Of a stretch of DNA of 64,000 nucleotides, positions 22,664 to 54,696 are shown piece after piece. Made by a program: the position numbers and the translations under genes. The stretch is taken from contig JAJZCM010000001.1 of NCBI GenBank assembly GCA_021846045.1, positions 54,457 to 118,456 on the forward strand. Direction: 5' to 3'. Positions within the stretch are counted from its first letter, which is position 1, and each line of letters opens with the position of its first letter. The notes beneath the pieces were generated by a model, which worked only from the letters and a program-made list of their open reading frames with translations, searched no databases and was not told the DNA's origin. The stretch is from a bacterium (lineage in GTDB: Bacteria > Elusimicrobiota > Elusimicrobia > UBA1565 > UBA9628).

Positions 22664-23968
22664 ATGTCCATTCTCGTGGTCGTTGGCGCGCAGTGGGGAG
22701 ACGAAGGCAAGGGCAAGATTGTCCATTTTCTCGCTCGGAAGGCGGAATATGTCGCGCGCTATCAAGGGGGAAACAACGCCGGGCATACCGTGGTGGTGGG
22801 CAAAAAACGCTACGCTCTTCATTTAATCCCGTCCGGGATTTTGATGAAACAGACCAAAAATATCATCGGTTCCGGAGTCGTCATTAGTCCGCGCGCGTTT
22901 AGAGAAGAGGTCTTGGGGCTTGAGAAACGCGGCATTTCCTCACGGAAGAGGCTTTTCGTCAGTTTCGGCGCCCACGTTATTTTGCCGTATCATATTTTAC
23001 TCGACGGCTTGAGAGAAGAAAGCGGGAGGGGAATTGGAACGACGAAAAGGGGAATAGGTCCTTGTTATGAGGATAAGGTCGCCCGCATCGGAATTCGCGT
23101 TTGCGATTATCTGGAACCGGAAACTTTTAAAAAATTGGTTGTTCAGAACCTGAAAATTCGTTCGGCGGAACTTGCGCGCCTGAGGCCGTTGGCTTCAATT
23201 GAAAAAGAAGTTTTTGCCGATTATGATTTATTGCGCCGTTTTATCGCTCCCTATGCGCAAGACACCTCTCTACTTCTGTCTGAGGCTATTGAAAGAGGAG
23301 AGAATGTTCTTTTAGAAAGCGCTCAAGGCGCGATGCTGGATTTGGATTTTGGCACCTATCCTTTCGTCACCTCTTCAAGCCCCATCGCGGGAGGGGCCGC
23401 AACCGGTTCCGGAATCGCTCCGGCCTCGGTTGAATTTGTTTTGGGCGTGACTAAGGCTTATACAACAAGGGTGGGTTTGGGGCCGTTTCCAAGCGAGATG
23501 GAAGTTAAAAGAGGCGATTATTTAAGAGAGAAAGGTCACGAGTATGGAACGACCACCGGGCGCCCCCGTAGAATTGGCGGTTTGGATTTGGTTCAACTCC
23601 GCCATGCGATTCGTGTTAGCGGAATCAATGCCCTAGCGGTCACCAAGCTCGATACGCTGTCTGGAACAGGCCCCATCGAGGTTTGCCGCGCTTACCGCTG
23701 GAAGGGTAAAACCCTAACTCATTTTCCCTGGTCACGGAAGGCTCAGGGGGAGGCAAAACCCATACTGATTCGTTTGCCGGGATTTAACGGAAATCTTGCT
23801 TCGGCGCGTCTGTTTTCCGATCTGCCGAAAGCCGCTCAAGACTATATCTTGTGGATTGAGAAAAATCTAGGGATTCCAATCCCCATCGTTTCCGTGGGGC
23901 CCGATTTAAAACAAACCATCGTCCGAGACGCTTCGTTGAGCTCTCTGGCCGACTTTGTTAAGCCCTGA
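22664..23968 (+). CDS. purA: adenylosuccinate synthetase
   Basis: [10 protein letters not shown]-loop, GGNNAGHT, and a C-terminal GIGPTKRGIG-like region. Confidence 0.9.
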
Positions 23969-24734
23969 TTTCATGCTTGAGACTCGTCTTTCCATCATCA
24001 TTCCCGTTTATAATGAAGCAGAAACCCTGCCCGCGATTTTTGCGAAATTGAGGGGGGTTCGCTATGGGGTTAAGACGGAATTTATTTTCGTCGATGATTG
24101 TTCAAAAGACAATTCCCAAGCGATTATTAAAGAGTTCTCTATTAAATTTCCTGACGTTATCCTCCATTTCCAGGACAAAAATCTCGGGAAAGGTGCGGCC
24201 ATTCGCCGCGGGATTTCTCTGGCCGCAGGCTCTTTGATCATTATTCAAGACGCCGATTTGGAATATGACCCCTGTGATATTCCGTCTTTGATGAAGCCGA
24301 TTCTTGAAGATGAGGCCGATGTGGTCTATGGCTCGCGGTTTAAAAATTCAGGCCCCCAGGTTCACCGCGCCTGGCATCGCTTGGCCAATCGATTTTTGAC
24401 GGTTTTTTCCAATCTCTCTTCCGGGCTTTATTTGTCCGATATGGAGACCTGCTATAAAATGTTTAGGGCCGACGTCATCAAAAATATCGTTCTTGATTCA
24501 GACCGTTTTGGTTTTGAACCTGAAATTACGGCCAAAATCGCGCAAATCAATCTTCGGGTTTCAGAAGTTCCCATCCGCTATTATCCGCGCTCTTATCAGG
24601 AAGGGAAAAAAATAGGCTGGAAAGACGGGTTTGCCGCCTTAGGGCATATCGTCAAATATAATTTTTTATCAAGAAAAACGGATTTTCTTCTGCCCTCCTT
24701 GCCCGCGCGGTATCTTCATCGGAAGGAAAAGTAA
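23955..24734 (+). CDS. GT2 glycosyltransferase, DPM1/ArnC-like (polyprenyl-phosphate sugar synthase type)
   Basis: [34 protein letters not shown] (DXD). Confidence 0.8.
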
Positions 24735-24737
24735 TTC

Positions 24738-51952: not shown

Positions 51953-53980
51953 TTAGGGTTCATTAAGGGAAAAAAGCATGCAGCCGCTAGAACGGTAAAG
52001 AAGGGGGGATTTTTTAAGAAGGTCTCTGAGGCGGATTTTGCCTTGCGGAGACAACTTTCCCAAGGAATCTCCCAGGCGAATCATTTCTTGCGGAACCCAT
52101 AAAATTTCAGTGATTCCTTGCCGCTTAAGATGCGCGGCAAGTTCTTTCTCGCTAGAGGCGAGGTTTGAGTCGTCAATGAAAAAGTTCGGCGAGAAAATGG
52201 ATGAGGCGATGGAACCCGCCGGAGCGTAATAGCTGCGCTCTTCACCCATAATCAGAATCTTATCATTTCGCTTCGCCTGCTCAGCGGCGTAATGCGCGCA
52301 GGGGTAATAAAGGAGTTTTTGAGACAGATAGTCCGTTCTGGTTTTCAGTCCCAGCAAGGTTTCTCCTCCATTAAAAACCCCGAAATTAACAAAGAGAAAT
52401 AAAAGCAAATGCGTCAAAATAATCAAAGAGATTGCCGAAGTTAAAATAATTTGTGTTGAACGGTCCAGACGTTCCTTGAGTTTGAGAAGCGCGTTTCCGG
52501 CCAACAGACAGAGAAGAGGGCAAAGAGCGATTAAAAATCTCAAAACAACGCCGGTCAAAAACCAAATCAGGATATAAACTAAAGAAAATACGACTAAGCG
52601 CTTTAAAAAAAGATTCTTTCTGGAAGCCCAAACGGCCAAAGGCAGGGACCAGAATAAAATTTCCCAACCAAGTCCGCCCAAGACGTCCATTCCGCGCCCG
52701 AAATGAAGGCTGTTGGTTAAAAGCATCACGGGAAAATCAGCCCAGCGCCGGTAGTTAAGCCCGCTGCGGTATTCGGCAAGGGCGTTGAAATAATTATGAG
52801 CGATTTCTTTATTCCATCCGATTTGTGAGGCCTTAAAGAAAGGGTTAAAGAACGGAAAAAAGGGATTGCCGACTTCTATCCAATTTTTGAGCATCCAAGG
52901 GGAGAAGAGAATCGTCACGATTGCGGTAAATAGCGCCGCGTCTTTGAGCGCTTCCTTCCTTGATTCCGATGGAAAAAAAACGCGGCTCCACAAGGTCATT
53001 CCTAAAATTCCCGCCGTAATCCCCGCGTAGTATTTGGTTCCCAAGGCCAGCCCGCAAAACACGGCCGACAAAATCAGCCAAGCCTTGGAACCTGAGGAAG
53101 TCGAGCGTATTTCTTCCCAGCGAAGAAATGAGAGGACCGAAGCCGTAGTCCACAACATCACCAAGGGTTCAACGTAAGAAGAGGCGGATAAAAGCATTGC
53201 CGAGCTTTGCGTAACAAGTAAAAGAATCGACAACATGACCGCTTTGATGGGAATTTCAAGCTGGGCGATTTCAAAAATCCACCAGGCGCTCAGAAAAAGC
53301 GAAACCCACATGAACATTTGAGCGAGAATGTCCGATTTAAACAGCAGCGATAAGGTAAACAGCATCTCGCCGTTTTGTGGGAAATGGCTGTAGAGAAGCC
53401 AAGGCAGTTTGACCAGCCCATGGGCTTGAACATAGGCGGCGGCTAAAGGTAAATGATAGACCAAGGAATCATACTGATGTGGGGGAATTAAACAGCACCA
53501 AAGAACGAGCAGAAGGGCGAAAAAAACGATCAGGGATTCAAAAGGGTTGCCGGTCAGAATTTTTTTCGGGGAATTAAATGCGCGAAAAAGGGCTTTTAAT
53601 TCCGCAAATCCCAGAATCCAAAGAATGGAGAGAAGTAAAGTCAGGGTGAGGGGGGTCAGATAATGAATGGCGGCAAGAAAAAAAACGCTCAGGCTTAAAA
53701 TTCCCAGTCCTAATGTCGCGCCGATCAAGGTTTTTTGCGAGGGGCTGATATCAGAAAAACCAAGCAAGGTAACTATCAGGCGCCCGGCTCCCGAAGCGGC
53801 CGATAAGATGAGTAACAGTTCCATGAAAGCTGCAAATCCAGGGAAAAAGGGAAATAAAAAATAGGAGCCGAACGTATAAAGGGAGAAAAAGAGCGTTGCA
53901 AGGGCTGCGCCGAAAAAAAATAATTTTCCGTCTTCGGTCATCTCAAAGCTTCTGGGCTTTTGGGCTGGGGGGAGAGCCAT
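51953..53980 (-). CDS. large polytopic membrane protein, probable GT-C fold glycosyltransferase
   Basis: About 14 TM helices, the early loop [17 protein letters not shown], and a C-terminal soluble domain. The family assignment is tentative. Confidence 0.5.
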
Positions 53981-54696
53981 TTGAAGTGAACAAGCCCCAG
54001 ACGATGGGGAATGTATTGAGAGATAATTTTGAGCGTGGAAAGTCCGTAGATTACGCTTCTTTTAAAATTAATGGAGGAGGCTTCGGGAAAGTATCTTGCG
54101 GCCACGGGAATATCTCCAATTTTAAGGTGGCAGGCCGCGGCCTGAAGCAAAAACTCCTGGTCAAAGACGAAATCGTCGGAATTGTCCTGCCAGCGGATTG
54201 TTTCAAGGCATTTCCGGGAATAGGCCCTTAAGCCTGAATGCCATTCCCCTAAGTTTTGACCCGTGCAGGTGTTTTCAAGAATGGTGAGGAAACGGTTGAA
54301 GACATATTTATACAAGGGCATTCCGCCCTCCAGCGCTTCCCACCGGGTTCTGATGCGGTTTCCCAAAACGACGTCGCAGATTCCGTTTTTAATGAGAGAA
54401 ATCATGATGGGCGCCAGTCTTGCGTCATATTGATAGTCCGGATGAATCATGATGACGACATCGGCCCCGCGTTTAAGAGCTTCTAGGTAGCAAGTCTTTT
54501 GATTGCCGCCATAGCCCTTGTTTTTTTCATGGACGATGGTGGTTAGCCCCAGTTTTTTTGAAAGGGCGGCGGTGCCGTCTTTGGAGCAATCATCCACCAG
54601 AATAATCTCGTCTACGCTTCCTAGCGGGATGTCAAAAACGGTCTTTTCCAAGGTCTTTTCCGCGTTGTAAGCGGGTAAAACCGCGATCGTTTTCAT
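53938..54696 (-). CDS. GT2 glycosyltransferase, DPM1/ArnC-like
   Basis: [24 protein letters not shown], and a DXD region. Confidence 0.8.

Follow-up and report, generated by a model that had tools for sequence, protein, structure and literature searches.

The three-component systems GtrA/GtrB/Gtr* and CsbB/GtcA/YfhO (Mann & Whitfield, 2016, cited in PMC11127046) place a GT-A polyprenyl-phosphate glycosyltransferase beside a GT-C enzyme that uses the lipid-phosphate-linked sugar outside the cytoplasm. The same general logic has precedents in the Arn and mycobacterial systems (PMC11127046). In this study, we analyzed a stretch of 64,000 nucleotides (nt) from an Elusimicrobiota genome (JAJZCM010000001.1 of assembly GCA_021846045.1, positions 54,457-118,456), which as a whole is called the window and whose own numbering is used throughout. 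An original prediction had described in it an unusual island of glycosyltransferase family 2 (GT2) and GT-C genes, in which a GT2 loads polyprenyl phosphate with a sugar and the adjacent GT-C uses the product in the periplasm. This central logic is supported by the co-inheritance of one such pair, GT2a and GT-Ca, and by fusions of GT2a-like domains to GT87. Instead of an unusual island, the region holds, in rearranged form, an ancient chromosomal gene cluster that is conserved across the phylum Elusimicrobiota. The open reading frame (ORF) listing and the Pfam and NCBIfam scans of the window proteins, from which genes and families were called, recovered nearly all genes named in the prediction at the positions it gave; the two most informative elements of the cluster, a UDP-galactopyranose mutase (UGM) homologue and a GDP-heptose pathway, had not been named. 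With a probability of roughly 0.55, the cluster glycosylates an envelope component on the periplasmic side of the inner membrane by means of polyprenyl-monophosphate sugar donors, a WecA primer and ligation by a Wzy_C-TPR protein. Elusimicrobiota are a widespread, largely uncultured phylum and, to our knowledge, nothing is experimentally known about their cell envelope.

The core operon and its conservation

The core of the cluster consists of four genes on one strand (aa, amino acids; TM, transmembrane; HexNAc, N-acetylhexosamine):

53938-54696 (-): GT2a, GT-A glycosyltransferase of 252 aa, first gene of the core operon (Pfam GT2)
51953-53980 (-): GT-Ca, GT-C membrane glycosyltransferase of 675 aa (Pfam PMT PF02366, 32.4 bits)
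50906-51952 (-): WecA-like polyprenyl-phosphate HexNAc-1-phosphate transferase of 348 aa with about 10-11 TM helices
49591-50913 (-): UGM homologue of the eukaryotic type, FAD enzyme of 440 aa, last gene of the core operon

Conservation was assessed by scanning one genome per GTDB species for the GT-Ca family, which yielded 108 relatives, of which 80 loci were kept (designated by L numbers). Every phylum label present among the 80 is Elusimicrobiota and none comes from another phylum; the scan used family-specific peptide patterns, and this restriction holds for the retrieved loci only. The closest proteins and loci belong to metagenome-assembled genomes (MAGs) of Elusimicrobiota or to unclassified 'bacterium' MAGs, with the best GT-Ca relatives being 76-78% identical; a look-up of the exact GT-Ca sequence in public assemblies gave no match. 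In the synteny counts over the 80 loci (tblastn and ORF-level comparison), GT2a stands directly upstream of GT-Ca in 71-73 (median identity 72.6%), the WecA-like gene directly downstream of it in 71-74 (61%) and the mutase homologue next after that in 67-68 (53.5%). The original prediction had proposed comparative genomics as a check on the co-inheritance of the pairs, and GT2a and GT-Ca are adjacent in 71/80. The order GT2a-GT-Ca-WecA-UGM is found in about 100% of the loci with enough flank, and in L001 the coding regions of the operon overlap by 4-8 nt.

Gene order extends beyond the core. In 41-47 of the 80 loci the gene immediately preceding GT2a is a homologue of GT-Cb, a further GT-C described below, and 17 loci have at least two heptose genes upstream of the core operon. 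The heptose block comes with a DPM1-like GT2 and an additional GT-C in 13 of these 17, or in 15 when L005 and L006, with an intervening short-chain dehydrogenase/reductase (SDR), are counted. The colinear order heptose genes-(SDR)-GT2b-GT-Ch-GT-Cb-GT2a-GT-Ca-WecA-UGM occurs in L033, L046, L055 and L078; in L010 and L021 GT-Ch is inverted, and L021 also has no GT-Cb. The gene set of the window is the same, one of its blocks being inverted. Since gene order is kept in 80 species-level genomes, the clustering is beyond chance.

This bears on the view that the region is an ordinary variable O-antigen, capsule or exopolysaccharide locus, or a chance pile-up of unrelated glycosyltransferase genes. 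Such a view could draw on the PmbA/TldD-like, QueC/QueE and RNase T genes that interrupt the region, on the different strands of the window modules and on the sugar-nucleotide genes and Wzy_C protein, which are typical of O-antigen loci. However, an order kept across 80 genomes at 40-73% protein identity is the opposite of a hypervariable O-antigen locus, the identity of the Wzy_C-TPR protein within the phylum is 57-68% along its whole length, Pfam detected no Wzx, Wzz or ABC transporter in the window, and composition is without anomaly. This explanation is disfavoured and we regard it as highly improbable. The GC content is 0.45-0.50 in the region and 0.49-0.54 in the flanks, and housekeeping genes lie within it or beside it (PurA, two PmbA/TldD-like proteins, QueE, QueC, RNase T, TopA, a XerC-like recombinase, DprA, MurC, GlgB and MalQ). 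Therefore, the region is a chromosomal cluster, and the idea of a horizontally acquired or mobile island was rejected. A promoter and terminator scan gave counts equal to the shuffled expectation and is silent on operon boundaries.

GT2a is 71-90% identical across the phylum and is the most conserved member of the cluster. Among the four DPM1-like proteins of the window it diverges most. Its best NCBIfam matches are AglJ, Dol-P-hexose transferase and PpgS (about 1e-15). Predicted structures were obtained for GT2a and GT-Ca (AlphaFold2, AF2) and their folds compared with solved structures; the GT2a model, with a predicted local distance difference test score (pLDDT) of 90, is nearest to ArnC, followed by GpgS, PfDPMS and GtrB. 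In a 50%-identity representative protein library, GT2a-like domains (48-51% identity) are fused to other domains. Two of these fusion proteins carry a GT87 GT-C domain; others carry Methyltransf_23 (P0364, P0371, P0372) or sugar C-methyltransferase domains. GT87 is a GT-C family that uses lipid-monophosphate donors and depends on polyprenyl-P-mannose, and this Rosetta-stone evidence indicates that the GT2a subfamily serves a GT-C. GT2a is a putative polyprenyl-phosphate sugar synthase, its sugar probably a furanose provided by the mutase. The fusion proteins themselves (P0379, P0390, P0364, P0371, P0372, P0500) are metagenomic, lie outside the window and appear uncharacterised.

GT-Ca probably starts about 16 codons downstream of its called start. 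Its AlphaFold model (pLDDT 92.4) shows a multi-span GT-C fold for which ArnT is the top match in both comparison programs; ArnT and ALG12 score above the PMTs, and the structural matches include AftA, AftB, AftD, EmbA and PimE. The model has no close solved relative, and the family profile gave no match to PDB sequences at E<=1. An invariant PPHQYD precedes the first periplasmic helix, and the first periplasmic loop holds an acidic residue. The protein has an additional N-terminal membrane segment and a C-terminal domain with two invariant cysteines, which fit a periplasmic location of that domain. The PF02366 match spans profile positions 105-225 of 245 only, Pfam found no MIR domain in GT-Ca to accompany it, and inspection of the family alignments by eye revealed no WWDYG-type oligosaccharyltransferase motif among the invariant C-terminal residues.

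The WecA-type gene named in the original prediction is present, with a Pfam Glycos_transf_4 match (PF00953, 2e-31, 109.6 bits). Its NCBIfam match is to WecA (5e-33, 114.6 bits, cut-off 326) more than to MraY (2e-11), and both stay below the equivalog cut-offs.

The last gene, at first sight an 'amine oxidase' and placed by NCBIfam in the PRK07208 'hypothetical protein' models, encodes a protein that matches the UGMs of T. cruzi and A. fumigatus over its full length (E=2e-44). Residues were mapped by eye onto the contact list of the A. fumigatus enzyme (AfUGM; Table 3, PMC3624792). Retained are the GGGLAG FAD motif, the GH of the His loop, YPFQ (Y104/F106/Q107), F158, N163, W167, N207, Y317, R327, Y419, R447 and Y453, among them the residues that touch uracil (YPFQ, F158) and the diphosphate (Y317, R327, Y419, Y453). 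The FAD motif, the His loop and these uracil and diphosphate residues are held in common with the eukaryotic UGMs of A. fumigatus, T. cruzi and Leishmania. Unlike them, the protein is bacterial and shorter (440 versus 480-510 aa), R182 is displaced by one position and a segment around N457, taken up below, is deleted. Judged by this conservation of residues, the protein is probably a UDP-sugar pyranose/furanose mutase.

Two observations concern the immediate neighbours of the core operon. Genes for a RNase T-like exonuclease, QueC and QueE (47617-49618, -) follow the mutase on the same strand, an association also seen in about 36-44 of 80 Elusimicrobiota genomes; no functional reason is apparent for this conserved link of 7-deazaguanine synthesis genes to a glycosylation operon. 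On the other side, 54912-58448 (+), divergent from GT2a, encodes three consecutive proteins of 430, 285 and 466 aa with neither family match nor signal peptide, at least the first two of which look coiled-coil-rich; the trio occurs only in the closest relatives (L001, L002, L004-L007, L027).

The heptose block and the Wzy_C-TPR module

At lower window coordinates than the core operon lies a block with a nucleotide-sugar pathway and further glycosyltransferases:

38816-42745 (+): GDP-D-glycero-alpha-D-manno-heptose pathway, five genes including a trailing SDR (Pfam, NCBIfam)
38816-39487 (+): HAD phosphatase, GmhB-like (Pfam)
39492-40190 (+): HddC-like guanylyltransferase (NCBIfam mannose-1-P guanylyltransferase 1e-42, HddC 3.5e-25)
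40187-41158 (+): HddA-like heptose-7-phosphate kinase (NCBIfam HddA 5.5e-52)
41145-41771 (+): GmhA (NCBIfam GmhA 4.4e-32)
41777-42745 (+): SDR epimerase/dehydratase (Pfam)
42749-43438 (+): GT2h, DPM1-type GT2 of 229 aa directly 3' of the heptose operon
43536-44402 (+): GT2b, DPM1/ArnC-type GT2 of 288 aa with an amphipathic C-terminal helix
44384-45667 (-): GT-Ch, GT-C of 427 aa (Pfam PMT_2, 38.8 bits)
45850-47670 (+): GT-Cb, GT-C of 606 aa whose C-terminal tail measures about 190 aa
36200-37222 (+): GT2x, conventional WcaA/TuaG/SpsA-type GT2 of 340 aa, not DPM1-like
37234-38874 (-): B12-binding radical-SAM enzyme (Pfam B12-binding and Radical_SAM)

All four enzyme types of the pathway (GmhA, HddA, GmhB, HddC) occur in one operon, with assignments at family level only, below the equivalog cut-offs. 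GT2h matches AglJ (1.5e-36) and Dol-P-hexose transferase (2.7e-28) in NCBIfam and PfDPMS (3.4e-10) as the best PDB entry, and is a putative polyprenyl-phosphate heptose synthase; its adjacency to the trailing SDR is repeated in the close relatives L001 and L004-L006. GT2b, which follows the heptose genes in many loci, matches PfDPMS (2e-16) and ArnC (8.5e-12) in the PDB and AglJ (6e-36) in NCBIfam; it is 40% identical to GT2c of the module described below and has a C-terminal hydrophobic moment of 0.54. Both GT2b and GT2h have amphipathic C-termini and strings resembling R-x-x-G-[ED]-S-K, a C-terminal motif associated with the DPM1/GtrB/ArnC type. In other genomes GT-Ch is again flanked by GT2b and GT-Cb. 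Profile-profile comparison (hhalign, families built from related loci) related GT-Ch to GT-Cc with 100% and to GT-Ca with 94% probability, and GT-Cb, whose Pfam PMT_2 match of 20 bits is below the cut-off, to the GT-Ca family with 98%. GT2x has NCBIfam matches to TuaG (2e-23) and WcaA (6e-19), and in the PDB it matches chondroitin synthase (2e-22) and SpsA. It is probably a transferase that extends chains in the cytoplasm; in L010, L025, L045 and L078 a homologue is located upstream of the heptose genes. The B12-radical-SAM gene is present as predicted and has only subfamily-level NCBIfam matches (PhpK and HpnJ). Its product is a candidate C-methyltransferase with a weak link to the cluster; L061, L064 and L073 have distant genes of this type (about 22% identity) in the interval from UGM to RNase T.

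A second module lies at still lower coordinates:

27331-29901 (+): Wzy_C-TPR membrane protein of 856 aa (Pfam Wzy_C PF04932, 63.9 bits, cut-off 31.7, plus TPRs)
32694-34031 (+): GT-Cc, GT-C of 445 aa, paralogue of GT-Ch (Pfam PMT_2, 28.3 bits)
31774-32712 (+): class I SAM methyltransferase with a Zn-ribbon (Pfam Methyltransf_23, 3e-22; N-terminal CxxC...CxxC)
23955-24734 (+): GT2c, canonical DPM1/ArnC-type GT2 of 259 aa
24738-25094 (+): ORF of 118 aa with one hydrophobic segment and no Pfam match
25156-26220 and 26217-27287 (-): two SDR nucleotide-sugar epimerase/dehydratases (Pfam Epimerase, GDP_Man_Dehyd)

GT2c is the textbook member of the set, with PDB matches to PfDPMS (1.8e-20), ArnC (4e-17) and GtrB (1e-10); its DADLEYDP aligns with DADLQHPP of PfDPMS and DADLQNPP of ArnC, and its RSYQEGK with RARGESK and REFGDSK. 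For all four DPM1-like GT2s (GT2a, GT2b, GT2c, GT2h) the Pyrococcus Dol-P-Man synthase is the best solved relative, with ArnC second in three, and the best NCBIfam families are AglJ, Dol-P-hexose transferase, ArnC and PpgS. The prediction had counted six GT2 genes, all of the DPM1/ArnC type. Five exist (23955, 36200, 42749, 43536, 53938) and four are of this type, with that at 36200 being WcaA/TuaG/chondroitin-synthase-like by its NCBIfam and PDB matches. Of the four to five GT-C genes it listed, those at 32694, 44384, 45850 and 51953 were found again; the supposed remnant at 24738 has no detectable similarity to the GT-Cs of the window (BLAST) and was dropped, its matches among all loci being at chance level only (L018, E 0.002; L050, 0.064). 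GT-Cc is related to GT-Ch with 100% and to GT-Ca with 96% hhalign probability, and all four GT-Cs are mutually related at 94-100%. Neither of the outcomes that the prediction had named as refuting it was observed: these GT-Cs did not classify as O-antigen polymerase, ligase or EpsG-type enzymes, and DPM1 signatures are found among the GT2s.

The Zn-ribbon methyltransferase was correctly recognised in the prediction; a role as sugar modifier is supported by the fusions of Methyltransf_23 and C-methyltransferase domains to GT2a-like domains elsewhere. The SDR pair resembles dTDP-glucose 4,6-dehydratase and GalE below the NCBIfam cut-offs. In the distant genome L084 the Wzy_C-TPR gene lies about 20 kb from the core operon and has kept its neighbours (a GT-C, a DPM1-like GT2, two PmbA/TldD-like genes and a methyltransferase), with a PMT_2 gene directly 3' of it. 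The PmbA/TldD-like pair of the window, 29879-31708 (+) and 33758-35674 (+), has signal-peptide-like N-termini and flanks the methyltransferase and GT-Cc. The first of the two proteins ends in a tandem duplication, with PSPLTHLLKHGEDAWPPALIA occurring twice; ORF 33758 overlaps GT-Cc by 274 nt, and its real start is probably downstream.

The fusion of Wzy_C and TPRs at 27331 is present as predicted. The prediction had noted the TPRs as an addition to the Wzy_C fold. The same architecture, Wzy_C with a C-terminal TPR, has been reported for the predicted or known O-oligosaccharyltransferases WsfB and PglL (PMC2943079), so that such a fusion is nothing unusual in itself. The protein of the window has, like PglL, PilO, WsfB and WaaL, an Arg/His-rich periplasmic loop with invariant residues (R329 R330 P331 H335 H340 N341 H346 E348 Y351). 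It differs from these proteins in its phylum-wide conservation and in its Wzy_C part, which by sequence matches no solved structure; only the TPRs found matches among PDB sequences. By its domain content it is a candidate ligase or O-oligosaccharyltransferase of the WaaL/PglL/WsfB type, and the PglL-like, protein-glycosylating reading of the cluster rests solely on this Wzy_C and TPR content.

It could be argued from here that the cluster is a general protein O-glycosylation system, in which the PMT-like GT-Cs put single sugars from lipid-phosphate donors directly on Ser/Thr of secreted or membrane proteins and/or the Wzy_C-TPR protein acts as a PglL/WsfB-type oligosaccharyltransferase for a WecA-primed glycan. 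Pmt of actinobacteria and the PgfS/PgfM enzymes of streptococci are models for this; in streptococci, protein glycosylation by a GT2 together with a GT-C has reportedly been observed (PMC12041528), and PgfS is among the matches of the GT2s. Besides the WsfB/PglL architecture, the high identity of the Wzy_C-TPR protein, unusual for a ligase or polymerase, fits fixed substrates. On the other hand, no acceptor protein or sequon was identified, the PMT match of GT-Ca is partial and comes without MIR, ArnT and ALG12 outscore the PMTs, sequence comparison relates the Wzy_C part to no solved ligase or oligosaccharyltransferase, and hydropathy leaves the membrane side of the TPR domain ambiguous. Moreover, the abundant secreted FN3/CTD proteins that the prediction had noted nearby come down to two adjacent genes sharing a tail like that of C-terminal domain (CTD) proteins (62280-64000), outside the cluster. 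Glycosylation of proteins as the general function is therefore a tentative alternative that we consider unlikely.

Sugar donors and the proposed pathway

If the cluster glycosylates an envelope component as proposed, GmhA, HddA, the GmhB-like phosphatase and HddC would provide GDP-glycero-manno-heptose, which the SDR may modify, and the mutase homologue would provide a UDP-furanose, most simply UDP-galactofuranose (UDP-Galf). The DPM1/ArnC-type GT2s, without TM helices and potentially attached to the membrane peripherally, would move these sugars onto polyprenyl phosphate, with GT2h and GT2b handling heptose and GT2a the furanose. The lipid-phosphate sugars would be flipped by a flippase, for which no gene was recognised in the window. 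The ArnT/PMT-like GT-Cs would then transfer them to the acceptor, GT-Ch and GT-Cb using heptose and GT-Ca the furanose, and GT-Cc acting in the second module. As for the WecA-like enzyme, whose gene is translationally coupled to others of the core operon, its most likely role is to prime an acceptor glycan linked to undecaprenyl diphosphate (Und-PP) through HexNAc, and the Wzy_C-TPR protein could ligate the glycan to its final carrier, lipid A-core or protein. While the analysis shows gene content, families, folds and a conserved gene order, we infer which sugars are donated, in what sequence the reactions run and what WecA contributes.

Several points weigh against this proposal. The motifs of GT2a are divergent, with HPD (HPDYQYD) for DAD, the first Asp being replaced by His, and R-YFPEASS for R..GESK at the C-terminus, the Lys being lost; GT2a could act on Und-PP-HexNAc rather than on undecaprenyl phosphate. 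The likeness of the GT-Ca model to oligosaccharyltransferases nearly equals that to ArnT. In the mutase homologue the segment G456-N457-Q458 is deleted, and N457 is a contact to galactopyranose in AfUGM; its sugar may thus not be galactose, which is the simplest guess and is not certain. A hydropathy scan revealed no TM helix in any of the five GT2s, unlike ArnC and GtrB. DPM1-type members without TM helices exist, such as human DPM1 and PpgS, so that only the GtrB/ArnC subtype is ruled out. No flippase came to light: the called window genes include no GtrA Pfam match and no ArnE/F- or Wzx-type gene, and crude hydropathy scans found neither a flippase-like free ORF (60-200 aa, at least 3 TM) in the window nor a recurrent small flippase-like ORF in 84 related loci. 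The flippase gene is possibly located elsewhere in the genome. All NCBIfam matches of the GT2s and sugar-pathway genes are below equivalog cut-offs, the window modules lie apart, partly inverted and on different strands, and a literature search gave no biochemical or compositional data on Elusimicrobiota envelopes.

A rival to the proposal is a diphosphate-linked pathway. Here WecA would produce Und-PP-HexNAc, GT2a would add a (galacto)furanose to this lipid in the cytoplasm, like GlfT1 or WbbI, and GT-Ca would be an oligosaccharyltransferase or ligase, like PglB or AglB, that moves the short diphosphate-linked glycan to its acceptor. In every genome the genes for the WecA-like enzyme and the mutase show translational coupling to those for GT2a and GT-Ca, much as cytoplasmic Galf transferases of galactan pathways come together with WecA and Glf; GT2a, moreover, strays from the canonical polyisoprenyl-phosphate glycosyltransferase (PI-GT) motifs. 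However, in sequence and structure GT2a comes nearest to polyprenyl-monophosphate synthases (ArnC, DPMS, GtrB) and to AglJ and PpgS, fusions join domains like GT2a to GT87, a family with lipid-monophosphate donors, and ArnT is the top GT-Ca match with both programs. The invariant C-terminal residues of GT-Ca hold no WWDYG-type motif, and neither the Pfam scan of the window nor the small-ORF scan found a Wzx or ABC exporter for a diphosphate-linked glycan. We keep this pathway under consideration because of the missing cluster flippase, the TM-less GT2s, the divergent GT2a motifs and the oligosaccharyltransferase likeness of GT-Ca, and rate it as quite improbable.

The proposed use of monophosphate donors finds its nearest parallels in three systems, each of which the cluster resembles in part. 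With the three-component systems it shares, besides the juxtaposition of GT-A and GT-C enzymes, the GT2 signature DXD, sequences resembling R..GxSK and the GT-C fold. Unlike those phage- or serotype-specific cassettes, it is conserved across a phylum, lacks a GtrA-type flippase and TM anchors on the GT2s, and is a chain of three to four pairs to which sugar-nucleotide pathways, a WecA-like primer enzyme and a mutase are added. From the ArnC/ArnT modification of lipid A (also LgmA/LgmB and FlmF/FlmK) it is set apart by the extra N-terminal membrane segment and larger C-terminal domain of GT-Ca; Arn-type pathways, moreover, have no place for a WecA-like enzyme or for a homologue of UGM. Pfam and NCBIfam found no ArnA, ArnB, ArnD or ArnE/F in the window and no aminotransferase, deformylase or small multidrug resistance (SMR)-type genes; the sole trace of the Arn pathway is a weak ArnA-domain match of an SDR (1.7e-6). 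The mycobacterial cell wall system (WecA, Glf/UDP-Galf, PpgS/Rv3779, Ppm1, GT-C arabinosyl- and mannosyltransferases, GT87) likewise combines a primer, a mutase, TM-less synthases and several GT-Cs by which a glycan is extended outside the membrane. It belongs to another phylum, and the cluster differs from it in the diderm envelope, in heptose, in a eukaryotic-type mutase instead of the bacterial Glf, and in having neither a GlfT-type polymerase nor a decaprenyl-phosphoryl-arabinose (DPA) pathway.

It is tempting to speculate further that polyprenyl-phosphate heptose and polyprenyl-phosphate (galacto)furanose, as undescribed lipid donors, build a phylum-specific envelope glycan on a WecA-primed Und-PP carrier through the chain of GT-Cs, and that the Wzy_C-TPR protein then transfers this glycan en bloc to proteins or lipid A. 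We consider this extended scheme doubtful. If true, it would be a bacterial analogue of lumenal eukaryotic N-glycan assembly or of mycobacterial arabinogalactan synthesis.

Neighbouring genes and significance

Some genes of the window outside the cluster deserve mention. The 679-aa protein encoded at 60236-62275 (-) has a PorP/SprF domain of type IX secretion (43.6 bits, cut-off 22.3) and TPRs. Upstream of its gene lie 62280-62696 (-) and 62693->64000 (-), whose products share the CTD-like tail ...ASGVYIYQI...GTVVV[AV]R; one of them has a weak CHU_C match and an FN3-like region that runs past the window end. Parts resembling a type IX secretion system are unexpected in Elusimicrobiota, and the arrangement is repeated in L001 and L002. 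At 1579-3927 (-), a 782-aa protein joins an N-terminal Ham1/ITPase domain (2e-63-level match) to a long TPR array, an unusual combination. The 550-aa protein at 12257-13909 (+) has only a DnaA ATPase domain (Bac_DnaA, 1.7e-28), and its gene is followed by those of a GAF histidine kinase and a ComM/Mg-chelatase-like protein.

The component families of the cluster and their logic are already known; the sugars and the combination of genes look new. In the literature, we found no account of a conserved cluster, confined among the retrieved loci to Elusimicrobiota, that joins a series of GT2/GT-C pairs to a GDP-heptose pathway, a WecA-like enzyme and a mutase of the eukaryotic type, together with the lipid-P-heptose and lipid-P-hexofuranose donors that it implies. 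We also found nothing on Elusimicrobia together with galactofuranose or on heptose together with polyprenyl phosphate and GT-C, and no precedent for lipid-linked Galf donors. The three-component-system work of 2024 concerned pentofuranoses, whose biosynthetic route is another one (PMC11127046). Should the inferred donors exist, the repertoire of lipid-linked donors would be extended to heptose and hexofuranose, and a bacterial use for the 'eukaryotic' UGM family would follow. The cluster would also offer a compact enzyme set for glyco-engineering and a testable marker of the phylum. As it is tightly organised and, among the retrieved loci, conserved throughout the phylum, it probably makes a core glycoconjugate of the Elusimicrobiota envelope.

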